A stretch of 64,000 bases of DNA, taken from the NCBI RefSeq assembly GCF_021028975.2, contig NC_059437.1, forward strand, positions 44,702,001-44,766,000, read 5' to 3'. This document shows, piece by piece, positions 2,412-34,254 of the stretch. A program made the position numbers and the translations under genes. This stretch comes from Sphaerodactylus townsendi. Its lineage: Eukaryota. The notes below the pieces were generated by a model. That model was not told the origin of the DNA. It worked only from the letters and a program-made list of their open reading frames with translations, and did no database searches. Numbering within the stretch: position 1 is the first letter of the stretch; each line of letters opens with the position of its first letter.

Positions 2412-5400
2412 GTTGCTCTCGTCCAAATCATGATCAGCTTGTCGTCTCCCCCGGAAGCCAGATAAAGCCCGTTGTTCGACCATCGCACACAATTCACGCA
2501 AGCTAAAGTGAAAGGAAACACACAAAATAGCCCAGGAGTGGCCAGAAAAAGGCAGTTCAACACACACGAGCCAATTTTGGTCTTGATGAGTGCATACACA
2601 CACACACACATATTATGTCTATTTTTCCTTCTGTTCTTTAAAAGAAAGCTCCAAGTGACTAATACAAGAAATGTGAAACAGCACAGCAGGCTTCATGTGG
2701 AGCAGGCTTCATGTGGAGGAATGGGGTAACACTCAGCAGGCTTCATGTGGAGGAGTGGGGTAACACATCCACCAGATTAGAGTCTGCCGCTTACGTAGAG
2801 GTGTGGGGTATCACTGGTTCTCCAGATTAGGGCCCGCCACTCTTAACCACTACACCATTTCTGTACCCTCTCTCCTCCATGCAAAATCAGATGCGATCAC
2901 TAGTAATCTGTATTAGTGGATCCTGCTCAAAGAACTTTTAAAAGTGGATTCCTCCATCTGTAGTGAATTGAGCGTCTTCTCTCATGAAACTGGTGTAACA
3001 ATGCGCAATTAGGCTTTTAAAAGCACTCGCATTCAAAGAAGTTGAACGCTGAATTATTACAGACTGAGGACTGTAAAATTAATTTTTAAGCAGGTGGCTG
3101 AGCTGTGGAAGGTGTGAAGGACAATAGGATAATTTTAAGGCCTTTTTCAACCCAGAATACAATTAAGTGCACGGGGACCACAAGGAATGACTGTGCTTCC
3201 CTTATTCTTCCTCACTGGATCAAGTAAACTTCACATGTATAAGAGGTCTAAGATTCTGATTTAGCAGTTAGAACATAAGAACATAAGAACAAGCCAGCTG
3301 GATCAGACCAAAGTCCATCTAGTCCAGCTCTCTGCTACTCGCAGTGGCCCACCAGGTGCCTTTGGGAGTTCACATGTAGGATGTGAAAGCAATGGCCTTC
3401 TGTGGCTGTTGCTCCCGAGCACCTGGACTGTTAAGGCATTTGCAATCTCAGATCAAAGAGGATCAAGATTGGTAGCCATAAATCGACTTCTCCTCCATAA
3501 ATCTGTCCAAGCCCCTTTTAAAGCTATCCAGGTTAGTGGCCATCACCACCTCCTGTGGCAGCATATTCCAAACACCAATCACACGTTGCGTGAAGAAGTG
3601 TTTCCTTTTATTAGTTCTAATTCTTCCCCCCAGCATTTTCAATGAATGCCCTCTGGTTCTAGTATTGTGAGAAAGAGAGAAAAATTTCTCTCTGTCAACA
3701 TTTTCTACCCCATGCATAATTTTATAGACTTCAATCATATCCCCCCTCAGACGTCTCCTCTCCAAACTAAAGAGTCCCAAACGCTGCAGCCTTTCCTCAT
3801 AAGGAAGGTGCTGCAGTCCCTCAATCATCCTCGTCGCCCTTCTCTGCACTTTTTCTATCTCTTCAATATCCTTTTTGAGATGTGGCGACCAGAACTGAAC
3901 ACAGCACTCCAAGTGCGGTCGCGACCACAGCTTTATATAAGGGCATGACAATCTTTGCAGTTTTATTCTCAATTCCTTTCCTAATATTGATTCCCAGCAT
4001 AGAGTTTGGCTCTTTTTCTACAGCTGCCATACATTGGAGTTGACATTCCAGCATGGAAACTATCAACCAAGACGCCCAAATCCCTTTCCTGGTCTGTGAC
4101 TGAAGTAAGCACTTTGACCCCTGTAGCATGTATGTGAAGTTTGGATTTTTTGCCCTCTATATGTGCATCACTTTGCATTTTGCTACATTGAACTGCATTC
4201 TAAGCCATTTCTTAGCCGCCCACTTCCATGCCTAATTTATCAAGGTCCAGCTTTGGAGCTCCTCCCCTTGCGCGAATCCTTTGTGGTTCCTCACCCAATC
4301 TCCTACATAATTTGGTATCATCCTGCAAACTCTGGCCACCACGCTACTCCACCCCTACTTCCAGGTCATTTTATGAATGGGTTAAAATGGCACTGGTCCC
4401 AATACAGGATCCTTAGGGGACACCACTCCCTACATCTCCATTTGTGAGAATTTCCCATTTACACCCACTCTTTCTGCTTCCTGTTTCTCAACCCAGTTTT
4501 TTTTAATCCATAGGAGGACTTCCCCTCTTATTCCCTTCATTAAGCTGGAGTTTTCTCAATAATGAGTCTCTGGTGAGGAACTTTGTCAAAAGCCTTTGGA
4601 AATCCAAGTAGACAATGTCCACTGGTTCCCACCTTATCCCACATGCCTGTTTACATCCTCAAAGAACTCTAGTAAGTTTGTAAAGACAGGATTTGCCTCT
4701 GCAAAAGCCATTGCTGACTCTTTCTCAGCAAGTGGTCTTGCTTTTCTACACATGTTTCTATAATTTTATCTTTAATGACAGATTCTACTAATTTACCAGG
4801 AACAGATAAGTCAAACATGACTGGCCTGCATAATTTCCCGGGTCCCCCCTAGATTCCAACTTTCTTAAAAGATTGTGTGTGACATTAGCCATCTTCCAGT
4901 CTTCAGGGATGGAGCCTGATTTCACAAGGGATAAGTTGCATATTAAAGAGTGAGGAGAAGATCAGCCAATTTCATGCTTAGGCTCTTTAAGAACTCTCTT
5001 GAGTGAGATGCGTAATCTAGATGCAGAGGATTTGGTAACATTTAGTTTATCAATGGCTGCCCTTCAGAGACTTTCTTCCCCTTGTCTACCCACACTATCT
5101 TTGTTAGTTCCTCAGATTCGGCCTCCCTACAGAAGCTTGGGTTCCAGGTGCAGGAATTTTCCTCACCCTCCTCTTGGGAGTGAGAGACAGATGCAAAGAA
5201 TCTCATTCAGCTTTTCTACCCAATCCTCCCTGTCATCTTTGTATAGCACACCCCTTTGTTCGAACTTTTGTCTGAATCCTAAGCAGGCCTACCGCTTTAC
5301 TTACTGGCTTCCCTGCTTTTGATGTACTTTCAGAAGGGCCTGTTTGTTGCTGGTTTTGATGTGTTCCCACAGCTATGTGTTCCCTCATGAAATCCCTTTT

Positions 5401-17400: not shown

Positions 17401-19281
17401 CTTTTTTTCTCTCTGGCCTTCCTGCATTTTGATAGCCGACGTCTTACACAGCCTATTTACCTTAATAAGATAAACTCGGGGCTGGTTTCACTTTTGCAGC
17501 TCAGGCCAAGAAAACCTGTATGGATCTTCACATTCAGTTAACCTCTTCAGCAAAATGAACTGTCAACGCTCTTTACAGGACCAACTCCTTAGATTTGAAA
17601 AAGACATACATTGTAATCCTACACAAAGTTACTCCAGTCTAACTTCTCTGATTTCATTCAACTGCACCACGGATGCTAGAACTGCAAAGGCACTTCCTAG
17701 TAAATTACTCCTGTAACTATACCACCCTAGCATAGCGGGGTGGGGAGTACTTATTCACAGGTATCCATGTTCATGTGCCAGCCTAAAGGGTGATGCTAGC
17801 ATTGCAGAGATAGGGAGCCCTTCATATTGAGAAACTGTGTTTCCACTTTGGGTAACACTCCTATCCACAAATCATAACTTAGAATTATATTTCACTTGTT
17901 TACTTAATCTGTACACTAACAGGCACAGTTCTCAAGTCTTTCTGGGTGCTTCATCCTATGTCCAAAAAGACCTATCCACTTTACTTTTCAGCTAGGGATA
18001 CATGTGAAGTTCCTCTGGGGTGAGAAAAAGGCATTCTGCATATGCCCAGAGACTCATTTTCCCTACGCTCTGGAAAACACAGTCTTCCTCTAACCACTTT
18101 CATGCCACTGTGACTAACACATTATTCCAGACTTTAACTAATGCACACTTATTTAACATGTAAGATAATACATACCAGAACTTTTGCCTGGGTACCCCAA
18201 CTGAAATCCACACCTGCTTCCTTTAACAGTGCATATGTAATGACCTGCACCTACTCACTGAGGGAAAGGCACTCTGCCCATCATCAGCGGTCCCAGAGCC
18301 TGAAACACTGGAATATTAAATCCTATCTCACTTACCACGGTGTGTATTCATGCACTTCAGTAACGAAGAAAAAGTACTTTGTCCATGCTTAGAGGTTCAA
18401 AGACCTACATCCCTAAAGTATTGGAAAACACAGTCCCTTTCTGGCCCATTCTGCACCATGTGGTTCCCTGGCTATGGAAGGCAACATAAACTGAACATGC
18501 TTTGAGGTCCCGGAATATGCATCACTGAAGTATCAGAAAACACAGCCCTCTTACCACCCTGTTATCTTACAGTGCACATGCAGTAATTCCATAGTCTGGA
18601 GAGAAAAGAATGTACTCTGCACATACTCAGAGACTCTCTGAAAGAAACACTCTGCACACAGTTGAAGACCCAGGAGCTGCACCACAAAAGCACACTGTCC
18701 TCCTTCAGTCCCATTCTCCTCTGGCCTGGGTGGGGTGGGGAAAGTTAAGTGCGCACTCTGCATGTGCTCACCAGTCCTCTCCATCTTGGCTCCCAAAAAG
18801 TGGATTATCCACATGCTTTGGTCCCAGGATCTGCATCCCTAGAGCACAGCCTTCTTCTTGTAGCATCCAAGCTGCAGTCTCATATGCCCAGACGGCACTC
18901 TGTGCATGCTCAGAGAGCCGCTTTGAGTCAAGTGCACCGCCCAGCCTCTCGCAATTGTGGTTGACCTAGGTCGGCTTCAGGAGATTCATTTTTCTCCTCC
19001 TCATCTTGGGACCAGCAGAGGAAAGGCACTCTGTGCATGCTCAGAAAGTCCCTTTGGGGCAAGCACACATCCCAGCCACTCAGCTGAGGGAAAGCACTCT
19101 GTGCATGCTCAGAAAGCCCCTTTGGATCAAACGCACAGCCCAGCCACTCACCATTGTGGTTGACCCAGGTCGGTCCAGCTAAGGGAAGGCTCTCTGTGCA
19201 TGCTCAGAGAGCCCCTTTGGGTCAACACACAGCCAACCACTCACCATTGTGGTTGACCCAGGTCGGCTTCAGGAGCTTCAT
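2412..19281 (-). CDS. HIRA: Histone chaperone HIRA, coding exons 1-4 (partial; continues beyond left edge). Exons: 19245-19281, 8566-8628, 6605-6715, 2412-2502
   Basis: Spliced translation MKLLKPTWVNHNG/KPIFSVDIHPDGTKFATGGQG/QDSGKVVIWNMAPVIKEDDEKNENIPKMLCQMDNHLA/CVNCVRWSNNGLYLASGGDDKLIMIWTRAT matches the HIRA WD40 N-terminus. Junctions are GT-AG; exon sizes 37/63/111/91 nt keep frame. Confidence 0.97.
3269..6490 (-). mobile_element. 5'-truncated CR1 LINE (ORF2 region) in HIRA intron 3; same subfamily as 56460-60610
   Basis: 3' UTR, tail and ORF2 C-terminus nearly identical to the other copy; APE motif GITETWWNEENQWD at 6077-6469. Confidence 0.94.
7284..7725. mobile_element. hAT MITE with a second hAT MITE (7314-7645) nested inside
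   Basis: Outer TSD AGATAGGG; inner TIRs CAGTGTTTACCAACC...GGTTGAAAATCACTG with TSD (C/T)TCCAGAT. Confidence 0.85.
10690..11090 (-). mobile_element. Older CR1-type RT fragment (partly duplicated at 11489-11689)
   Basis: ORF 10659-10988 with IKFADDTK...RIQNDL..LE.W...KCKMLHLG-like motifs. Confidence 0.8.
11097..11488. mobile_element. hAT MITE, CAGAGGTGGGATCC family, copy 1
   Basis: TIRs CAGAGGTGGGATCC...GGATTCCACCACTG; homologous to 11690-12058 and 37734-38115. Confidence 0.85.
11690..12058. mobile_element. hAT MITE, CAGAGGTGGGATCC family, copy 2
   Basis: Flanked by 8-bp TSD CCTCTCAT. Confidence 0.85.
13238..13430 (+). mobile_element. 5S rRNA-derived SINE with RTE-like tail (related copies ~51690-51870, ~61960-62100, inverted ~36720-36900)
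   Basis: GATCTC...CTCAGAAGCTAAG...CCTGGTT.GTATTTGGATGGGAGACC resembles the 5S internal control region; followed by GAGGAAGGCAATGGCAAACCACC. Confidence 0.7.
15320..15461. repeat. 71-bp tandem duplication (2 copies, 1 mismatch)
   Basis: CCGCCATCTTCCAAAAGAGCC...CTTTCCCAGTA at 15320-15390 and 15391-15461. Confidence 0.9.
18020..19281. repeat. Degenerate tandem array in HIRA intron 1 (motif GCACTCTGTGCATGCTCAGA) including partial copies of exon 1
   Basis: Motif recurs near 18031, 18269, 18613, 18752, 18895, 19026, 19094 and 19189; units become better conserved toward exon 1. Confidence 0.8.
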
Positions 19282-19780
19282 CTTCCTCCTCCTCCGCCTC
19301 CTCTTCTTCCTCCTCCCTTTCCTCCTCTCGTCCGCCACCGCCGCCGCCGCCGCCGCCGCCACCCGGCTCCCTGGGCCTCCGTGCTGGGAGCGGCAGCGGG
19401 TCGGGGCAGGCGGCGGCTGGGACTGCTGCGCCGCTCGGGCTGGCCTCGGAGCCGGCGCCCCGACGCCCCGCACTACCGCCGCTCCTCCGCCCCGCGCTCT
19501 CCGCCCCTCGGGCCGGCCGCTGCCCGTTCCTGCCGCCGCTGCTGCTCCACCGGCTGCTCACGGCAGCTCCATCCCCCGAGCCCGCCGCCGCCGCCGCCCC
19601 TTCGCCCACCTCCCGGCCACATCCCCCGCTCCCGGCGGCTCCCCGGCAACGCCGGAAGTCAGCGGAGGGCAACGACCTAAGCGGCTCGGCGGGAAACAGG
19701 GACGACGCCCAAAGCGGGACTTGGTGTTTTGCCAGACGCCTCTCCGCCAGCCTGGGGCAGCTCTCGGAGTCGTGACTTCG
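19282..19780 (-). promoter_or_regulatory. HIRA CpG-island promoter / 5' UTR
   Basis: Very CpG-rich; (GCC)n tracts; ETS-type CCGGAAGT at 19652-19659. Confidence 0.75.
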
Positions 19781-23169: not shown

Positions 23170-23416
23170 CAAGCGGGAAAGATTAACAAAGGAACTACTC
23201 CAAAGTCGACCTAGCCAGGAGGGAGGCGTGGGGCGGACAGAATCGAACTTTATAGAGCTGCTTCTTTTGCATGCAAGCCGGACTCTGGGCGGCAAGGCGA
23301 GGGAACGAGCCGGACACTAACTGCGGACGGACCGGAGTGCGCACCAGATCTGTTCCCCCTTTGGGAAGGAGGGAGCGGGCGTGGAGGTAGTGCGGGCTGC
23401 AGCGTGTGTTGGAGCC
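23170..23416 (+). promoter_or_regulatory. MRPL40 CpG-rich promoter / 5' UTR
   Basis: Local CpG enrichment and GC box GGGGCGG near 23230, directly upstream of the ATG. Confidence 0.6.
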
Positions 23417-26400
23417 ATGTTAGCCCAGGCAGCGGTCTCGGGGGCCTTGAGTCGCCTTCGCAGCAATGCAAGAGCCGCCTTGTGTAGGTAAGTGCCGCCA
23501 CCCAGCCACCCACCCACCCACGTCTACTTCGTTCTGTCAGTAGAAACGTATTTGCAGAGAAACATTTTAACGTTTTTGTTTTAAACGAAGCATATAAACC
23601 ATTCTTTGTAGTTGCTGGATCAGACCAGCAACGTGTTTCCAAATTTCAACAGTAAATAGCGCGATAATTCTAGGGAGGCTGACTTTCCACACATCCTTAG
23701 GAAAAAGCCATTATGGTGGTCACATTTTTATCCTGTCCTCCTTCAAAGACGATATATGAGAGCCAGCGTGGTGTAGTGGTGAAGAGCAGGTGGATTCTAA
23801 GCTGGAGAACTGGGTTTGATTCCCAACTCCTCCACCTGAGTGGCAGACTCTTATTTAGTGAACCAGATTTGTGTCCCCACTCCTACACATGAAGCCTGCT
23901 GGGTGACCTTGGGCTAGTCACAGTTCTTTGGAACTCTGTCAGCTCCAGGTGTCTGCTGTGGGGAGAGGAAGGGGAAGGAGCTTGTAAGCCACCTTGAGTC
24001 TCCTTACAGGAGAGAAAGGTGGGACATAAATCCAAACTCTTCTTCTTTTTCTTCTAATAAGCAGGGCTAGAAAACGATGGCCATCCTTTTGTTGTTGGAT
24101 TCTGATCTTCAGAGGTAGGCTACTTCTGAACATGGAAGTGCCTTTTCCAGCCATCGTAACTGCTGCTGATATTCTGTTGTTGCATTTGATAGAAAGTTCT
24201 CTAGCTCACCAAAGCTAACAGTGCATTAAATCAGTCAGCCTTTAAAGTACTGCTACCCTGTTTTTTTTCATGTGACAGCAAAGTAGCAGTCAGGATGGCC
24301 TCCATGTATCTAGCTGTTTATAAAGACAGTTACAATTTGCTTTGTTGTAGCAGGAAAAATTACATTTACCCCCTAACTATATATGCGAGATTTTGAAGGT
24401 TACTTTCGAAAACTTTAGTATGGCGAATAATCTCAGAAAGAAACAATGAAAAAAATGCATTACTTGATGGATTTGTGAAACTTGAATCTTGACAGCAGCC
24501 TTTTCTTCTAAATCTAGTTCTCAGAAGCTCTTCAGATGTTCAGCGATACTGTAATTCCCCATCAGTCGCTTCGTCAGCATGGCCAATTCGCTGGTAGGGG
24601 CCGATGGAAATTGAAATGATGGGAATTGTAGTTCCTGAACATCTGGAGAGCCGCAGGTTCCCTACCCCTGTTCTAAATTGACTGATCTCAGATTTTTTCC
24701 CCCAATTATCCCTAGCTCCTGGTTAACCTGTTATGGTCAAGGTCGAGAGAACCACTGGCAATCTTCACTTCTAGGACTCAGGGCATCTCTACCCATGAGG
24801 TAAAATGTAGTTCATATTCTTTAGACTGCTTTTGCTAAATTGGGGGAAACCTATATCAATATTTACTCTTAGAGAATAAAATGAAGGACTTCCAGTGATT
24901 TGGCTGCTTTCAGATACTTTCTAAGTATGCAAAGTGCTTTCTAATTCACACCTCATGTAGCCTTGCCAAGGACTGTAGTAGTGCACTGCTTCACTCCAGC
25001 AGTGCCGTGAGAGAACGTTGGGGACGCTTAACGGACCTGGGCGGGCCTTGCCGGGTCGCGAGATCGCACTCCCTTTACCTCCTCATCCCCTAATGAGTCA
25101 CGGGTCATGAACTGTCTAAGGCTCAATTCCACCGGGCTTAGGGACAATGGTCTGCTCCCCCAGGTGGAGATTGAAGCTCTTTAGACGCCAGACGCTTCCT
25201 CCAAGACGTGAAATGCCGATGTGAGGATCAGCGCATCACATGATGATTCTCCGACTCTCCTGCTCTCCGGAACTCCCCAGTCCTCCCTCCTCCTACACGC
25301 CTCTAAATAGAGTAACAATAAAAGGTGCCATAGGAATCGGCAGACGGAGATTCGCTAGGGAACATCGACTCCGTCTTCCGCCCGCTAAGCTGGCGCATCT
25401 CCACCAGATGTTATCTCCGCCACTCCGCTCGTCTTCGTTCTTACAGCTGACCGCTGCGGGTTTAATTACGCTGGTGCTTCTAAACCTCGGGAATCCTCGA
25501 ACCTCCACTCCTGCTCACCGTCGCCTGGGGAAGCGGGTCCGCGATACCGGTCCGGCTGGATCGTGGCGATCCAGGGGACCACCGTTTCGGCATCGCCTGT
25601 CCTCTGGATCGGCTATCCAGAGACACGCTGGCCCTAGGACACTCTCTCGTCCGGACGGAACACCGGTGAGTATGGGAGCTTGCAAAAGCAGGGCTTATGA
25701 CAAGCACGCTGGATCGAACTGAAAGCTGCTTAACGCAATGCTGCAGGGTCCCCGGTCAGAAGAGAAGCGGAGCTGCGCGAAATTGGTTGAGGAGAGTGAA
25801 GCTCAGTGTCCATGGTACCGAGAGGGGGGGACATTGAATCTTAAGGACTGGGAAAACATCGGGCGCACTTCGCGACAGAGCCTCGCTACCGATGTCGCCA
25901 TGCTACTGACGGAGACAATGTTTTGTCGCCATCAGCCTGCAGACCTACGGCTCCCTTGCTGTAGGTCACTCCTTCGACCTTTCACCTTCAATTTCAACCC
26001 CGGAATTTTCTCTATCCACTAAATTGGACGCTTCGTCCTCCTTCTGCCCCCCTCGCTCCTTCACCCATTTCAAACTCTCCCGCTGCTCAGCCGCCCCCTC
26101 CTCCTTGCTCCGCCTTTTCCTTTCTCCGAAGCCACTGCACTCCGCCACGCCACGTAATGGCGCTGGTTTCAGAACTCTCGCGAGAACGTATTAGCCACGA
26201 CATCTGCAGAAGAAAGAAACCCTGACGGAAGACGATGCCGAGAGTTCTGTGCATTGTGCCCCATCCACTTCACAGATAACTCGAGGAGGATGGCATAGTT
26301 CGGCTGGTTGTCGAAAATCACCTCTGAGCTATAATATCCTTACCGAAATTCAGCAATGCGGACGTAGGAGTCACTTCAGCCCCTACGTGAGAGGCATGCT

Positions 26401-29400
26401 GGAAGCCATCGCGAAGGAACCAAACCTAATGGTTCCAGATGACTGAAAAACACACCTTCGCGATGCTCCTGGAGCCCCGCGCACTTGTGGTTCCTGGGAA
26501 AGTGGAGTTCCGGCCAGCAATGCTTCAACAGAGCAGCCACCTCTGGCGGTAGCGCCTACAACCGCCAGCTTCAGCTTTACGGCTTCGGCGCTTTTGCCAA
26601 TCCCAACGATCAGATTGTACTGCTCTGAGGCCACCCTTTACTGTCGCTTCTGAGTGCGCCTATAAGGCTTTGTCAAAGTCCCCAATGCCGGCCAGCCAAC
26701 CCAGAGTTTCTCCTCCATCCGCAAAACCCCAAGAGCCCTATGCTGAATTTGTGAACAGGCTCCAGGAAGCGCTCAAGAGGCAGGTGGTAGATAGCGAGGA
26801 GGCCTCAAAAACGAGCTCCTCATGCGCCAGCAAAAGAGAGAACGCTTCCACGGAGTGCCGCAGGGCAATCACGGGCCTGGGCAAAATCCTGAACTGGCCG
26901 ACATGCTTAAGGCTTGCCAGGACATCGGATCCTCCTTCCACCAAGCTGGCCTCCTCGCCGCAGCACTTCCTCCTCGGGCGTGGGAGGCAGCCCCAGGATG
27001 ACTGCTTTAACTGCGGCAGACCCTCGACACTTCCGGCGAGTGTAGGCAGCCCGGCGCGGGGGCCTACAACCCCCGATGGAGGAGGGTCCTCCCCTCAGGA
27101 GGAGAAGCGCCACCTAAAACCCGTGCCCACGCTTGCCAGAAGGGCTTCCATTGAGAAACGACTGCCCGTCGGGAAACTCCCCGCCCGGGCGCCTGCCCCA
27201 GCCCAGGACCAAGGAGGAGAGTACTTCAGAGCAGACCCAAACGCCTAGGCCCCTGCCGAAACCACCCCTCTCAGGGCATCTCGCTCGCATGCACTCCAGC
27301 CCATCTCCTTTAAGTTCCCCCACGCAGGTTCTTGTCGCCCTAACTCCAGTATGACGCAGCCCATCCCTACCGGGACAATTAGCTGGGTCGTGCTGCCAAA
27401 GGCCTCTGCCGCTGAACAGGGACTGTTCCCACCATCGCCCCCGAGTGCTCGACTCCACGCACTCCAAGGACCCATCCACCTCCAGGTCTGGACAAACATC
27501 CCACAGGAGCTGCTCCGCCGGAGCCAGCTGCGCTCAGCTGGATTTTCTTGCCCCATGCGCCGCCCGCCGTCGAACCCCATAAATAGCGCTAATGCTTGGT
27601 GCCCCAGCAGCCAATAACATGGCGCAGGCCTACACTTTCACCGCCGCAGCGTGGAGACGCTCATCGGGAGCTTCCCGCCCGGCTATCTGGAGCTCGCTTA
27701 TAGAAGGATGTAAGTTCAAGGGCCTGGTGGACACCGGCGCTGATAAAGTTACCGCTATCAGAGCAGCCGAGTGGCCCGACCAGTGGCTTCAACACCGAGG
27801 CTTTGCCCGCGACATCTGTGGCATGAGAGACAAACCGCTGACGGTGAGCATCCCGGCCGGCCACACGGTCAACAGCCCAGGACTCGAGCGGCAGCTCTTC
27901 AGTCCGGGCCCCCATCGCTTCTAGACATCCATGTCAATCTCTGGGGAAGAGACCTCATGAGTCAGGTTAAAACCACTCTTGGTCTGGGATGGGTAAAGCC
28001 GCCACGGATCATTGATTCTCCAATCGTTGCCTTCCGGTTGCTCTCTTAATTTCCACACAGGAAATCTGTTTCCCTCTCCTCTCCCCTCTTTTCCTTCTGT
28101 TTTTTCGACCAGTAGCGGAGGGCCAATTGGCTGACTGGCCCTCCTGGATTAAAAATCTGGGCCCGGCCTCTGATATCAAGAGCACTGTCAGGACAGGCCC
28201 CAGTTTAAAAAAGGCTGCCGCCATTATGCGCCTAATACCCAAACCCGTTTGGGTGATGGCTGCCCAGCGCCTGGCAACTTTATCAGTACCACATTAAAGG
28301 CCAGGCGCTCAGCCGAACCGTACCTCCTTTAAGGAGCCGGCTCCCCGGCGGGCGGCAATTCCCTCAAGATAATTCGACTACAAAATTCTAGCAGCACCAT
28401 CCAGCTTCCTGCATTAGCCACCAAGGTCACGGTAAGTGCAACTCCCTTTGCAAAGAAACCCCCCTTCCTTTCTCTTCCTTTGTGTGTGCGAGGAATTTGC
28501 CTCTAACGCCTCGATTGCTTCATTCCCCGGATGCACCTTATCCCCAAAAGGTGCTTCCAAAGCCCCCTTTTGTGTTGCTGATTAAGCATGCATACCCACA
28601 ATCCCCCCAGGACCTCGCTTTTTCTGTTCCCTTCCTTCTCGAGGCTCGACCTCGCCTTTGACGCATCTCTGATGACGCTTCATGAAGCCAATTCCTCAAC
28701 CAGGGTCAGCCACCTCCTGCCCTCCCCTGTCAAAACAACTAAAGAAAGAGGAGTGTAGGCTGCCCTCCCAGGTGAGGGTTGCACTAAAAGCAACCTTCAC
28801 AGGCTGCAAAACGCCTTCTTCCTTCCCATATTAAATCCAAGCAAAACACTAACTCGATCCCAATCTCCCGCCATCCGCTTCTAGAATCTGAGCCTGGCGG
28901 ACCCGCCCCCCCCCCGCAACCTGGGGAAAGGGGTGTGTGTTTCAGTCCTCTCTTCCTACAGGTTCCCGGACTCCGATTCGCCATAACAGGCCAACCCATG
29001 GAATGGCGCCGCAGGAGGAAACCAACCCCATCCCCCGGGAGATGGAACGCATCTCTCTAGAGGATCCCCGCCCAGCGATCCCAGCAGGAACGCCCGCCGC
29101 CAACCAAAGACCCGGAATGACCTGGGGAGACGCCAAGGCGATCACTCAGCCAGGCTCCTTAGCGCCGCTGGCGCCAGCAAGACCACCCCGGTGACACCCG
29201 AGAACCCTCTGTGCCGCCTCTCTTTGCGATCATCACCACCAACTCAGCGACTCACTCATCCTTTGCCTGCTCTGGCTGCCTCCCGCCGGCGGCATGCATC
29301 GTGGCCACCCCTGACGAAGCCACCAGACCAACATCTGGGAGCAGTTTGCTGCCGCCAAGCCAACGCCTCTTCATCTTTTCTGCCTGGCCAGTACTCTGTG

Positions 29401-32400
29401 GGAGTCGGGAGCCTGCTGAGCCTTCCGCCTGCTCCCCCCGTCTGCAAAGCACCCGGAGACTTCCTAGCAGAGTCTGGGCTGAGCCCCTTCATGAATGCCT
29501 TCATCCATCAGATATTCTCTATGAGCCGCCGACTGGGGACCCGTCACCCAAACCCGCTGGCGCTCTCTCCCTTGTCACCAAGACTGTCGCTAACCACTGT
29601 GCTCTTAACCGACTCTGCGCTTCTCGCATCACCGGGCGCAGCCGAACGAGGAACCGACTCCGGGCCCATTCTCTCCGTCGGCTCGGCCAGTTGGAACTGC
29701 ACACACATGGAGGACATTCCCCCCCCGTGTTCGAAACATCCTGCTCCCTCAGGCTGGGAGCCCTTGACCTGCGGGAGAGGACGCTTAACTACATCCCCGC
29801 CTCACTCCCTGCTTCGGAACTCTCTTGCTGCCTCAGCTCGCCTCACCATTGTCCTCTACCCCTGTGGCTCCACCCCGGGAGCCCGACGCCGCCGCCGCCG
29901 CTCCGCCCTGCCTCTCGGACCCTCCCACGCCGGGAGCTGGCTGCGTCGCCCTCTCCCAAGCGGAGTTCGCCTCCCTCGCAACTTCCCTAGTGGGAGTCCC
30001 CGGACTCCGCCTCCCTACAATGCTAAGACTGATAATGGCCGGCTGGCCTGTGCCCCTCATGGGTCCATCAACTTCTGCCTCCACCGCCTGGATGCCCTGG
30101 CCTCCGCAGCAGCAGGTAGTCCTTCACAAGCCCGTTTGCACCCTAGACAATCGTGCACGCTTATTGATTATCATTTGTTGTTGCTTGCATCACCAAGGTT
30201 GTGAGAATGTACATAATATGTGTTGTTTTAATCTTTTCTGATAATTCCCCAGTTGATCCACATGAAAGTGCTGCGGAGCTGCAAGAAGTTGTATCTAATC
30301 TGAAGTGCATGATGTTTTTGCCCCATTGGTGGTCAGCCCTTCTGGAGCTGGCTGCCGGGAGGATGGTTGGAGTGCTATTGTACAGCTCTGCATTGGTTTA
30401 ATTGTGGCAGGCGTCTTTGTTATCGGATCTTTGTTTCGCTCAATGCGTGTCTAATACAATTGCTCTGTAACGTGGTGTAAGAAACCCCTCGGTGATTTCC
30501 CTTACCCCGCGAACCAAGTTCTAATGTTGCACAAGCAGCTTGGTCAATCTTGACCAAACGGCGTGGAGGAGACAAGCGCCCCTCTAAATCGCCTTTAGCT
30601 GCTTCGCCCCCCCGCTTTCTAAAATGTGTGAGGAGATATGTAGTAGTGCATCTGCCGCACTCCAGCAGTGCCGTAGTAGAACGTTGGGACGCCAACGGAC
30701 TCCGCGGCGTCTTTGCCGGTCGTGATCGCGACTTACCCCATCCCCCCTCATCCCCCCATGAGCCGCACGGGTCATGAACTGTCTGCCTCAATCACCGGGC
30801 GCAGGGACAAATGGTCTTTTGCCTCCCAGGTGAGGATTAGGCTCAGACGCCAGACAGCTCCTCTCCTCAAGACGTGAAGCCAGATGAGATCATGCATCAC
30901 ATGATGATCTCTCCGACCTCCCGCTCTCCCGGAACTCCCCCCAGTCCTCCCTCCTACACGCCCCCAATAGAGTAACAATAAAAGGTGCCAGGAACCGGCA
31001 GACGGGAGGATTCGGGGCGAGGAACACGGGACCTCCTCGGCCCCCCCCGGGCCGCTGCTGGCGACATCTCCACCAGATGTTATCTCCTCGGGCTGCCTCT
31101 GCTCTCAGTTTCTTACGCTGACCGCGTGGGTCGACTACAAAGGACCTTGTGAGAGAGATTAGCTGGAGAAAATGTGACTGTTACCCTCTAAAGTTATGGT
31201 CGAGTAAAGGTTTGAATTTGCATCTTTACGTTTAAGCTCCGTGCTTCACACTGTCTGGGGGGAAAGTCATTATCATGGTCAGATTTTTATCCTGTCCTCC
31301 TTCTAAGACAATATATGGTTTCCCCTCCCTACTTTATTCTCATTGCAATCCTTCAAAATACGTTAGGTGGAAAAAGGGAGACTATCCTAAGGTTATCTAA
31401 TAGCTTTCAATACTGAGAAGGGCTAGGAATGCAGCAATCTGAGGCTGGCACTCTAACCTTGACGATGTGTAACTGATCCAGTAAACAATAAAAATTCAGA
31501 CATTTGGGTTCCAATTTTTCTGCTTTTGGAATGATCACAGGAAGAATTCCGAAGAACTAACATCCATTGACTAATGGTGCCAGTATTTATTTTAATGTGC
31601 ATGGCTTGTCTTTTGATTCATTTTGTCCATAACCCAGCCAACAAAATGTTCCTTTTTGCCAGAGGGCGTTTTTATAAAGGGAAGAGGTTTGTTCTTTTCA
31701 TGTTAATGAAAAATGGTGGGCAGCTTCATATTGCCCTATTTATTGTATCTTTTTAAAATGTACCCTTAGCATTGTTTTCTCATTTTTGTAATCTTGTTTT
31801 ATTGTTGTATGACCTCTTTTGTTTATTACTTTTTTTTAAAAAATGTAATCTGACTTGAGTTTTGCTGAGAAAGGCATATTACAAAGGAACAATAAAATGA
31901 AGATGAAGTGTTGTCATATTGATGTGTATCTGAATGCTGAGGTGGAGTTTTGAATGGTTTTATTCTCCTTCAGAGCAGAACCAAGGAAAAAAAAGAAAGT
32001 GGATCCCAGAAGAGAACAAGCTGCAAAGGAGCGGTTGAAAAAGAAGTTAAAAAAATTGGAAAGAGCCCCACAGGAGCTGATCCCTATTGAAGACTTTATT
32101 ACACCGTACAGATACATGGATGAAACAAGGTAAGGATCTACCGAGGACAAGAGTTCAGATGAGATGCTGGGAATCTGTTCTTGCGTGTTTCCCAGATCAG
32201 ACAGAAGTCCTGCCCCTGCCCTCTCAAGGAGATCCGTTTTAGTGTATGCTGTTCAGAACTTCGTTCTATGGAAATGCTCCTTTGGGGAATGGGGACCTGC
32301 TCCTTTGGGGAATGCTCCCCTTTAAGTATATGGGGACCTGTTTCTATGTTGTTATCCCAGAATAATCACATCAGAGCTTTAGATATGATGGAGGAGCAGG

Positions 32401-34254
32401 TCACAGATTAAACTGCACTAAATCGGATTCAACAAGATCTGCATTTCCATATCAATACGGGGCAAATTGGGAGGAAAAAACAGCCGTGGAAAGAACCCTA
32501 TTCCCTTGAGAGAGGCGGGTGGTGGTGGTGGTGGGAGATAGGAAGGAGAAGGCCCATCCCCAGTGGGGAACAGGCTTACAGGAGCTGGTTCCCTGGAAGT
32601 GGGAGCTGCTGGCTTGTAGTGATGGAAGCTCCTGTCCTTATCATGCGGCTGCCAGCTTATGGCCAAGTGCTTTCAAGCTGTTGACCCATCGGGAGTTACC
32701 CCTGTGACCTTTAATGCCCATCCACCCTAGGCCATAACAAGCAGGGTTGTTACCTTTGTATTCTGACAACTGCAAACAGACACCAAGTCACACAGTAATA
32801 TTTGCTGAACCACATTGAGGCAGGGTTTACTACACCAGAAAAACAATCTTGTGATAACTGCTGAATTCCCATTATGCAAAAAAAAAGGTCTTGGATATTT
32901 AGGTACAGTTGTCAAGCAGCGTATGTTCTTCAACTCGTAAGGAACTACAAGATGCTGAATGCTCTGTTTACTTCAGGTTGCAGTCCTATGCACGCTTAAC
33001 CTTGAATCATCATAATTAATTTAGTCAAATGTACTGTCGAAGGAATGTGTGTAGGATCAAAATACCAGACTACTATTTTACATAACACCATGATGAACTC
33101 AGAGCTCTGACGTTACATGCCTCCCCCTTCCTTTCCTGAGTGGGTGGGCCACGACCAGATGATGGGTCTGCTTCTCCTTCCTCTCCTCACCACACTGAGC
33201 TTCAGAGATTGTTCCATTGACCTGAGCCAGGAACACGGCCCACAGCTGGCTAACTATATAATCACCACATCTCCTAAGACCCAAATCACATGTGCACCAG
33301 AAAGCGTAGGAAGATTGGAGTGTTTGTCTTGTTTAATGTTTGTCCATAGTGTTTGTCTATATCCATCTTTCCTCTTCAGCCTACAATCTTTTTTCCTTAT
33401 TCTCAAAACAACACTGTGAGGTAGGTTAGGCTGAAAGAGGGTGATTGGCTGAAGGTCACCTAGCAAGCTTCCATGACAGAATTGGGATTTGAGCTCTGGT
33501 CTTCTGGATCCTAGCCCAAGATTCTAACTACTATACCACTGATTGTATGGCAGCTTTTCTGCTTCCATGGCAGAGTGAGGATTTGTATCTGGGTTTCCCA
33601 GAGGCTAGTTTGACACTCTAACCCAGGGGTGGCCAACCTATGGTGCTCCAATTGGCCATGCTGACAGGGGCTGATGGGAATTGTAGTCTATTAACATCTG
33701 GAGCACCATAGGTTGCCACCCCCACTCTAACCGCTACACCATGCAGGCTCTCAGTAAAAGGATCTCAGGCCGCACATGTTGGGAAAAGACCTTCCTCTGC
33801 CAAAGATCCTGCGCAGCCACAAGTTCAGAGTAGGAAATACTGCGAAGTCAACTGCATAGGTTCAAAATTGGTAGTTCAGGAGCATGTTTTGTAAAAGCTG
33901 TCGTCTTAGAACACCCTGTTGCTTTCCCCCCTCCTGTCTGTCAGGGTACGAGTCACCGCCCCTTTGTCCTTCGAGGAGAGCGAAAGACGAGCCATTCTGA
34001 TAAAGAAGTGGGCCCAGTACAAGCATCAGCAGCACAGGGCAGAGATGGAAACTATCAGGTCCCTGATGGAAGCCCAGGAACAGGCACTGAAAGAGCTGCG
34101 TCTTGAATCGGAGGAACTGTATCAGGCGGCGATCTGCCGAGACAACAACCTGTTTCCTTTCGAGAGGCAGGAGCCTCTGCATACACCCCCGCTGCCAAAT
34201 TATGAGGCTCCTGAAGGGAAATGCAATGACATCACCAGAGTGTATACACAGTGA
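23417..34254 (+). CDS. MRPL40: Mitochondrial ribosomal protein mL40, complete, 206 aa. Exons: 23417-23487, 24716-24799, 31974-32129, 33945-34254
   Basis: [23 protein letters not shown] (presequence-like) / [28 protein letters not shown] / [44 protein letters not shown] / ...[14 protein letters not shown]...[28 protein letters not shown] junctions, 621 nt in total, syntenic next to HIRA. Confidence 0.95.
23758..24054 (+). mobile_element. tRNA-derived squamate SINE (Squam3-like). Further copies at ~12310-12590(+), 14080-14330(-), 19908-20211(-), 20961-21256(+), 36326-36604(-), 61631-61913(-), 63393-63666(-)
   Basis: Head GAGAGCCAGCGTGGTGTAGTGG with A/B-box-like motifs (GGGTTTGATTCC); shared body; (TTC)n tail. 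Confidence 0.8.
24974..25470 (+). repeat. ERV 5' LTR (3' boundary approximate)
   Basis: Colinear with 30639-31139; AATAAA at 25317-25322; followed by TGGTG... PBS. Confidence 0.9.
25472..25503 (+). other. Primer binding site, degenerate tRNA-Phe type
   Basis: TGGTGCTTCTAAACCTCGGGAATCCTCGAACC resembles the tRNA-Phe complement TGGTGCCGAAACCCGGGATCGAACC with small indels. Confidence 0.6.
25672..27248 (+). pseudogene. gag: ERV gag (MA-CA-NC), frameshifted as assembled
   Basis: MG start; matrix motif [19 protein letters not shown]; capsid [12 protein letters not shown] and [21 protein letters not shown]; [11 protein letters not shown]; zinc knuckle CFNCGR; GGGAAAC slippery site at 27171-27177. 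Confidence 0.88.
27171..27990 (+). pseudogene. pro: ERV pro (dUTPase-like segment plus aspartic protease), frameshifted as assembled
   Basis: [18 protein letters not shown]...GPIHLQVWT (dUTPase-like); [15 protein letters not shown]...WPDQW; [11 protein letters not shown]. Confidence 0.85.
28860..28995 (+). pseudogene. Remnant of integrase C-terminal domain, containing the env splice acceptor (AG at 28960-28961)
   Basis: RHPLL...GPAP...WGKGCVF...[14 protein letters not shown] resembles the class II IN end (DPxxxxWxGPxPxxxWGRG...WxPxRxxRP). Confidence 0.6.
29003..30480 (+). pseudogene. env: ERV env (long leader, short SU, TM), frameshifted as assembled
   Basis: Leader [11 protein letters not shown]...VTPEN...LFAIITTNS; polybasic cleavage RRRRRR near 29884-29901; ISD-like LDNRA..IDY.LLL and [18 protein letters not shown] (CX6CC); hydrophobic segment near 30360-30480. 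Confidence 0.85.
30639..31139 (+). repeat. ERV 3' LTR (501 bp)
   Basis: TGTAGTAGTG...GACTACA termini; preceded by a degenerate purine-rich tract; AATAAA at 30977-30982. Confidence 0.92.

Follow-up and report, generated by a model that had tools for sequence, protein, structure and literature searches.

The window analysed here, 64,000 nt of the Sphaerodactylus townsendi genome (GCF_021028975.2, NC_059437.1:44,702,001-44,766,000, forward strand), contains an endogenous retrovirus (ERV) bounded by long terminal repeats (LTRs). The family to which this provirus belongs, termed type B in the following, has the gene order LTR-gag-dUTPase-protease-spacer-env-LTR and is devoid of pol. The features of the locus are compiled in Table 1. 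A noisy primer-binding site, which we take to be that for tRNA-Phe, directly follows the 5' LTR of the window copy, and a candidate slippery heptamer at 27171 lies in the gag/pro overlap. A first-pass annotation had placed env at 29003..30480; position 29003 is the ATG of an overlapping frame, and the boundaries were revised to those in Table 1. Both the loss of pol and the existence of a partner family, termed type C below, had been missed in that first reading.

Table 1. Features of the type B provirus within the window.
Feature	Position	Strand	Remarks
Provirus	24974-31139	+	LTR-bounded, 6-bp target duplication
5' target-site duplication, 6 bp	24968-24973	.	same letters as 31140-31145
5' LTR (end approximate)	24974-25480	+	447 bp, TG...CA in clean sister copies
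Predicted major splice donor, just 5' of gag	25663-25671	+	8/9 match to donor consensus
gag (matrix, capsid, two zinc knuckles)	25672-27248	+	noise-broken in window; 506 aa in sisters; Pfam Gag_p10, Gag_p24, Gag_p24_C
dUTPase-protease frame (end approximate), overlaps gag end	27171-28000	+	Pfam RVP, dUTPase
Non-coding spacer replacing pol	28001-28960	+	~650-bp non-pol insert and decayed integrase 3' remnant; at least 40 copies
Predicted internal cassette exon	28113-28431	+	polypyrimidine tract and AG acceptor, three hairpins, GT donor
Predicted env splice acceptor	28955-28963	+	sequence scan
env	28983-30622	+	conserved Met at 28998
Env leader / long signal peptide, ~100 aa	28983-29298	+	basic cluster 36-43, TWG...PE helical hairpin, hydrophobic region 79-99
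Surface subunit (SU)	29303-29899	+	189 aa in sisters; no CXXC; polybasic furin site at end
Transmembrane subunit (TM)	29902-30622	+	Cys-flanked internal fusion peptide (C298, C336), N343 sequon, immunosuppressive domain, CX6CC, membrane helix, ~50-aa tail
3' LTR	30639-31139	+	ends the provirus at 31139
3' target-site duplication	31140-31145	.	same letters as 24968-24973

Contigs carrying both host-LTR junctions were obtained from two public runs of one sample, with flanks identical over 340-1087 bp. A contig of run X2, which stems from another sample, joins 24967 to 31140 and represents the empty site. Since the junctions occur in one sample and the empty site in another, the insertion is real, recent, and polymorphic. 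In the junction-bearing runs, the longest listed pieces inside the provirus did not exceed 70 bp at a likeness of at least 97%. Compared with five sister copies, the window copy displayed 80-81 extra-base and 13-14 missing-base events along with 51-58 substitutions, whereas 171 sister-sister pairs differed on average by 1.1% and 0.83 indels. Because ~80 small insertions per 1.4 kb stand against less than one indel between sisters, the frameshifts of the window copy are very likely noise of an unpolished long-read assembly. Long low-complexity runs of poly-G or poly-C that take the place of an LTR or flank at five loci (L023, L024, L052, L059, and L061) are a further sign of poor repeat assembly. 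The two LTRs of the window copy are just 77% identical, as would be expected of an ancient, truly decayed provirus, but we regard this as extremely improbable, given that insertions exceed both substitutions and deletions, the site is empty in another sample, and the window's own letters inside the provirus are supported by no contig. In practical terms, read noise in assembled repeats can fake frameshifts and make a polymorphic insertion look ancient.

To characterize the family, we used copies from elsewhere in the genome. In each genome search, the best 40 of 242-2196 candidates were scored; with env as query, all 40 scored of 2196 candidates matched, and an env frame of at least 506 aa was present in 14 of the 19 sister loci fetched. 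Ten full-length type B sisters, chosen as best env matches, are 5.8-kb elements in which env is open in all ten, gag in six, pro in six, and all three genes in four. pol is absent from these sisters and no Pfam match was obtained in the spacer. The two loci of the ten with a measurable full LTR pair showed 99.1% and 99.8% identity. The ratio of nonsynonymous to synonymous changes (dN/dS) was 0.08-0.10 for the dUTPase and 0.06-0.08 for the protease in four of five pairs (0.27 in the fifth).

The insert within the young spacer is 63-67% identical to that of older pol-deleted copies, and an intermediate state occurs in 15 older loci, in which short remnants of reverse transcriptase (RT) and integrase (IN) flank the ~650-bp insert. 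Among 22 aligned copies of the putative cassette, the AG acceptor and the GT donor were each present in 21. Within its hairpins 96.7% of the cells were paired, and four pairs showed two-sided changes; of 500 shuffles, none attained the cell counts and 36 attained the pair count, the covariation being modest and inflated by related copies. The cassette was not found in the pol-bearing loci scanned, all copies found being pol-less. From its sequence, the spacer insert is predicted to be a cassette exon or a cis element. In sisters, the third hairpin (window ~28320-28335, where the window copy is noisy) has a self-complementary loop resembling a dimerisation signal. Strongly folding RNA was observed in sister locus L027 at provirus positions 800-1450, in gag between matrix (MA) and capsid (CA) (z down to -6.7), and at positions 3300-3750, in the 3' half of the spacer (z -4.3); both are candidate packaging or export elements. 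An Rfam scan of a sister provirus gave no matches at E≤1.

A search with the class II RT thumb yielded 83 matches, and most of the 20 loci examined lacked an intact SU. Among them is the second young family, type C, which encodes the Gag, RT, RNase H, and IN domains in a single frame of up to 1596 codons, has no protease, and carries a dead env that is deleted and broken. No match to RVP or dUTPase was found in any of four type C open reading frames scanned against Pfam. In 25 further type C loci (30 fetched, of which 4 were too short and 1 was unparsed), a protease motif upstream of RT occurred in none, and nucleocapsid and RT lay in one open frame in 15. The linker between gag and RT consists of decayed dUTPase-protease DNA evolving neutrally (dN/dS 0.85-1.33), in contrast to pol with a dN/dS of 0.04-0.07. 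LTR pairs were 98.9-100% identical in five of seven measurable loci. Thirteen of the 40 scored type C matches were on large contigs, and many others were in tandem on small contigs. Three small contigs of 10-13 kb (C1269, C486, and C1504; loci L121, L122, and L123) harbour head-to-tail type C units sharing one LTR, which may be tandem arrays, circles, or collapsed repeats.

Types B and C have the LTR, the primer site, and MA (97-100%) in common. Their identity along the element is 91-100% across LTR and MA and 85-89% in CA, the middle part cannot be aligned, and identity then increases along TM and into the 3' LTR, from about 80% up to 86-98%. Older relatives, in contrast, stay near 80% over the whole element. 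Synonymous divergence (dS) between B and C was 0.03 in MA and 0.60 in CA. In trees of 34-38 rows (4 rows were left out of each TM tree), B and C were intermixed, with identical rows, in leader plus MA and in 3' TM and were separate in CA, while an older pair of a pol-less and a pol-bearing locus (L088 and L069) grouped together in all four trees. Two different queries spanning the junction of pro and RT converged on the same seven pro-pol-joined full-length loci among the best 40 scored each. None of these has an open pro or pol and one has an open env; they are ~80% identical to B and their ends are not homogenised.

Thus, types B and C each keep under purifying selection what the other has lost. 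Reciprocal losses, reciprocal selection, and homogenised ends together are the trace expected from co-packaging of two defective genomes, and we lean towards the view that type B replicates by reciprocal complementation with the co-resident type C, both families being mutually dependent. In such a cycle, free Gag, protease, and Env would be provided by B, whereas RT and IN would come from C in the form of a Gag fusion to be cut in trans by the B protease. With the RNAs of both packaged together, strand transfer would make their ends homogeneous. Env itself is a recombinant that retained the beta-type signal peptide, which overlaps the pol frame at its 3' end, while SU-TM was replaced by an avian gamma-type ectodomain with an SU reduced to the proximal domain. 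A more far-reaching scheme, to which we give somewhat less than an even chance, is that of a naturally bipartite retrovirus with an envelope/protease and a polymerase genome, which would have passed through at least two rounds of co-evolution, recombine at the ends, and insert into the germ line without an intact parent; its Rec-like leader would export both RNAs, and the role of the cis signals that disappeared with pol would pass to the new hairpin exon.

Several points weigh against mutual dependence. The conclusion is drawn from genome sequence, and the pairs underlying the dN/dS values share branches and are hence not independent. An intact helper could escape searches of the depth given above, and an exogenous one would be invisible to any genome search. 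Some of the 'broken' full-length loci may really be open, as assembled repeats are noisy. The shared ends of B and C could also have arisen by recombination of each with an unseen third genome. Finally, because many matches are in tandem on small contigs and may be collapsed repeats, the copy number of type C is uncertain.

The main rival, which we consider rather unlikely, is that B and C are defective families independent of one another and that an intact helper, either exogenous or endogenous and collapsed or mis-assembled, mobilises each of them. ETn is mobilised by MusD and VL30 by MLV in this manner. Complementation in trans, including that by a co-infecting virus, is an established ERV route (PMC10435555). 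That the junction searches cover the best 40 scored loci, that one of the seven full-length loci has an open env, and that noise can fake breaks would all be compatible with such a helper. However, a parasite of an intact helper would not have to maintain strong purifying selection on env, protease, and dUTPase (in B) or on the whole of RT-IN (in C), the seven full-length loci are ~80% identical to B and lack homogenised ends, and the losses of B and C are exactly reciprocal. Dependence in one direction is less probable still: C would retrotranspose within cells by means of the B Gag and protease, and env of B would be kept for receptor blocking or host benefit instead of spread. ERVs commonly lose env and amplify inside cells, and C has lost env in several lineages; yet B, with at least 40 copies, a polymorphic insertion, and no RT, is itself amplifying and so needs C or a helper, and selection on env is spread over many dispersed copies instead of one fixed locus. 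If B and C indeed depend on each other, the retrovirus is effectively segmented, and a lineage in active invasion would go unnoticed in screens that demand gag, pol, and env within a single provirus. The pair would then represent a natural test of the evolution of genome partition, with intermediates preserved in one genome.

The envelope had been described in the first-pass annotation as a mosaic of a betaretrovirus-like leader, an alpharetrovirus-like TM, and an unusually short SU. The motifs are present, and the architecture was confirmed in unbroken sisters; in the window itself they are scattered over three frames, and the broken env fragments of the window gave no env match in Pfam. The TM motifs LDNRA, IDY.LLL, a block of 16 residues, and DNS were all recovered in the window, and the cleavage-site stretch ends at ~29899. 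Of the 511 aa of the unbroken sister Env, ~100 belong to the leader and 189 to SU; a polybasic site and TM follow. As proposed, TM is closest to its counterpart in avian sarcoma and leukosis virus (ASLV; E 3e-13), followed by filoviral GP2 and syncytin-2 among solved structures, and TLV_coat scored above the Pfam cut-off. In TM, the immunosuppressive domain (ISD) is followed by the CX6CC motif (C381-C388-C389). C298 and C336, which flank the fusion peptide with its hydrophobic window at 310, are invariant in all 21 aligned sequences, as are N343 and T345 of the sequon where the first heptad repeat begins, and SU lacks CXXC. A Cys-flanked internal fusion peptide ~9 aa after the cleavage site has been reported as a mark of avian gamma-type Env (PMC3758190), and by its sequence features this Env falls under the avian gamma-type definition of Henzy and Johnson (PMC3758190).

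A protein search returned 25 Env relatives, 36-49% identical, from lizards, snakes, turtles, alligator, and three mammals. A further search over proteins of 990-2825 aa yielded a single avian gene model. The SU is truly short, while the ~200 codons and the sixth Arg of the earlier description stem from extra bases in the window, sisters having 189 aa and five Arg. As the SU core measures 170-184 aa in all 21 aligned sequences, the short SU is a trait of the family and not a deletion. An SU model (pLDDT 77) gave 13 matches with Z≥2 among 48,161 chains, all of them filoviral GP1 or retroviral SU; the best had a middling score (Z 6.8, root-mean-square deviation 4.5, 124 aligned residues). In this model, SU takes a fold like that of the conserved retroviral/filoviral proximal domain. 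The model of full-length Env was of low confidence (pTM 0.38), and its Foldseek ranking, with EAV-HP first, is just a hint. Mean dN/dS against nine older open copies was 0.18 for the leader, 0.13 for SU, and 0.06 for the TM ectodomain; among 13 young copies the values were 0.27, 0.12, and 0.15, respectively. Taken by itself, the architecture of a beta-type leader joined to a minimal avian gamma-type ectodomain can be stated with high confidence. A natural SU of 189 aa also provides material for the study of a minimal receptor-binding fold. In turtle gene models (P0004-P0012, P0035), gag, dUTPase, or protease is joined directly to this type of env.

With ~100 aa, the leader differs from the short canonical signal peptide of avian gamma-type Env (21-64 aa, PMC9967133). 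The TW block by which it had been likened to Rec is present at ~29117, although with the letters TTPVTPEN and not PPVTPEN. A leader search gave 30 relatives with a common basic stretch and the TWG...PE block. HERV-K_REC (PF15695) matched 19 of 31 leader relatives scanned, on profile positions ~20-70 and in 15 cases at E<0.01; all matches were below the gathering score. A leader profile recovered 21 longer proteins, including beta-type env fragments (P0055-57), and in relative P0033 the leader is attached to a different, CWVC-bearing SU. By way of these relatives, homology of the leader to betaretroviral Env signal peptides appears well supported, if indirectly. At the motif level, 7 K/R lie within the 15 residues before TWG (2-7 in eight relatives). 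In the helix equivalent to a nuclear export signal (NES), W46 and V49 are kept, and the residue that follows is Thr, as opposed to Leu in many relatives.

By prediction, the leader serves as a signal peptide and, once cleaved, probably reaches the nucleolus. That it would also perform Rem-like RNA export, serving type C in trans, seems doubtful. The two leaders from the S. townsendi genome gave no match to HERV-K_REC in Pfam, a sequence scan revealed no splice donor of at least 6/9 in the leader of the young family (a 6/9 donor occurs at codon 100 in six of seven older copies), and no structured 150-nt window (z≤-2.5) was found in env or the 3' LTR. In addition, a leader of full length without stop occurred in 2 of 21 pol-bearing, SU-damaged loci compared to 13 of the 15 older loci devoid of pol; after loss of SU, there is no retention of the leader in cis. 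All of these results count against a Rec-like leader. The signal peptide of HML-2, which has 87 aa in common with Rec and is nucleolar, does not export RNA (PMC2649029). In the S. townsendi elements, the long beta-type signal peptide travels with the class II backbone while the ectodomain behind it is swapped.

Two further observations concern the leader region. The pol frame (residues ~1470-1596 of type C locus L063; window ~29003-29300) continues ~100-130 codons past integrase across the env leader; this extension holds a CxxCGxxC..H motif and is open in several type C copies with a dead leader frame. The leader profile also matched primate periphilin-1 isoforms (P0058-P0071, P0075), which would fit an env leader exonised from a class II ERV.

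The class II backbone proposed earlier was borne out, since betaretroviral structures ranked first for Gag, dUTPase, protease, RT, and IN in a best-match ranking in which RT came from sister pol-bearing loci and the identities of unnamed PDB entries are assumed. HERV-K Gag is among the closest solved structures for the family's Gag. Further marks of betaretrovirus-like class II elements were a beta-type MA, two zinc knuckles, a separate pro frame with N-terminal dUTPase, a YMDD RT, and the 6-bp target-site duplication. In the alpharetrovirus genus, the protease lies in the gag frame and dUTPase is missing; here dUTPase and protease occupy a frame of their own. Because of this separate frame and the betaretrovirus-like Gag, dUTPase, protease, RT, and IN, the sequences characterize the virus as beta-like with a swapped envelope ectodomain and not, as had been suggested, as a bridge between alpha- and betaretroviruses. 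A true phylogenetic intermediate would accord with ASLV as the closest relative of TM and with a weak Avian_gp85 match in the C-terminal SU, but it is very improbable in view of the backbone ranking, the occurrence of the same leader on beta-type and CWVC-bearing SUs in relatives, and reports that alpha-like envs pair also with gamma and ERV-L pol (PMC13568524).

In the surroundings of the provirus, Pfam MRP-L28 matches occurred in two downstream exons in sense orientation (31987-32130 and 33910-34251), and a candidate first exon lies upstream near 23410-23485 (region 23400-34254). The provirus probably sits in an intron of this gene, presumably MRPL40, and its splice acceptors and poly(A) signal could alter the host transcript in carriers. 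Sequence words of the family were present in runs X1-X14, which stem from seven coded organisms, the shares ranging between 0.05 and 0.93; contigs of X1-X5 were compared with the window. At 18878-19294 of the window, short dispersed direct repeats of 42-80 nt in 2-4 copies precede a GC-rich island at 19.3-19.7 kb. An ARAGORN scan gave no matches.

The envelope architecture is largely catalogued already, as alpha-like envs, minimal SUs, and the combination of beta-pol with alpha-env have been published. Alpha-like envs are described as ubiquitous in reptiles and present also in rodents and lagomorphs (PMC13568524), a host spread that agrees with the relatives found for the type B Env. Minimal SUs were reported in Mab-Env3 and Mab-Env4 (10.1101/2021.11.05.467493). 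These and CHIRalphaEnv resemble the type B Env in the Cys-flanked fusion peptide, ISD, CX6CC, the lack of CXXC, and a minimal proximal-domain SU (PMC13568524, 10.1101/2021.11.05.467493), Mab-Env3/4 being compared by description. Unlike bat alpha-like envs, which have signal peptides of 16-32 aa and gamma or ERV-L pol (PMC13568524), type B combines a beta-type leader of ~100 aa with a class II backbone. The same gross mosaic, with a beta-related pol and an alpha-type env, is on record for class II ERVs of caecilians (Chen et al. 2021, cited in 10.1101/2024.07.05.601823). Like the Rec/Env signal peptide of HERV-K(HML-2) and the Rem signal peptide of mouse mammary tumour virus, the leader is ~100 aa long, contains a basic cluster and the TW...TPE block, and has a hydrophobic region at its C-terminal end (PMC2649029, PMC9967133). 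It differs from both in having no direct profile match, fewer hydrophobic NES-equivalent residues, no rec-type donor found, and a gamma-class ectodomain attached. The distinction drawn in a review between signal peptides of the gamma type, which are short, and those of the beta type, which are long (PMC9967133), is softened by the pairing of leader and ectodomain observed here. Neither a Rem-like leader on an avian gamma-type Env nor a reciprocal ERV pair was described in the titles and abstracts listed by literature searches, which does not establish absence from print. The mosaic env thus being largely precedented, what is newer is a genome that has no pol but a reciprocal partner. IAP I-delta-1, an in-frame gag-pol fusion that type C presumably resembles, as well as ETn/MusD, VL30, and EAV-HP are non-autonomous ERVs, defective genomes amplified in trans that have LTRs in common with a partner. 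These cases lean on an autonomous partner. In contrast to these systems, and with no intact young parent found among the best 40 scored loci per search, the young families B and C are both defective, and reciprocally so.

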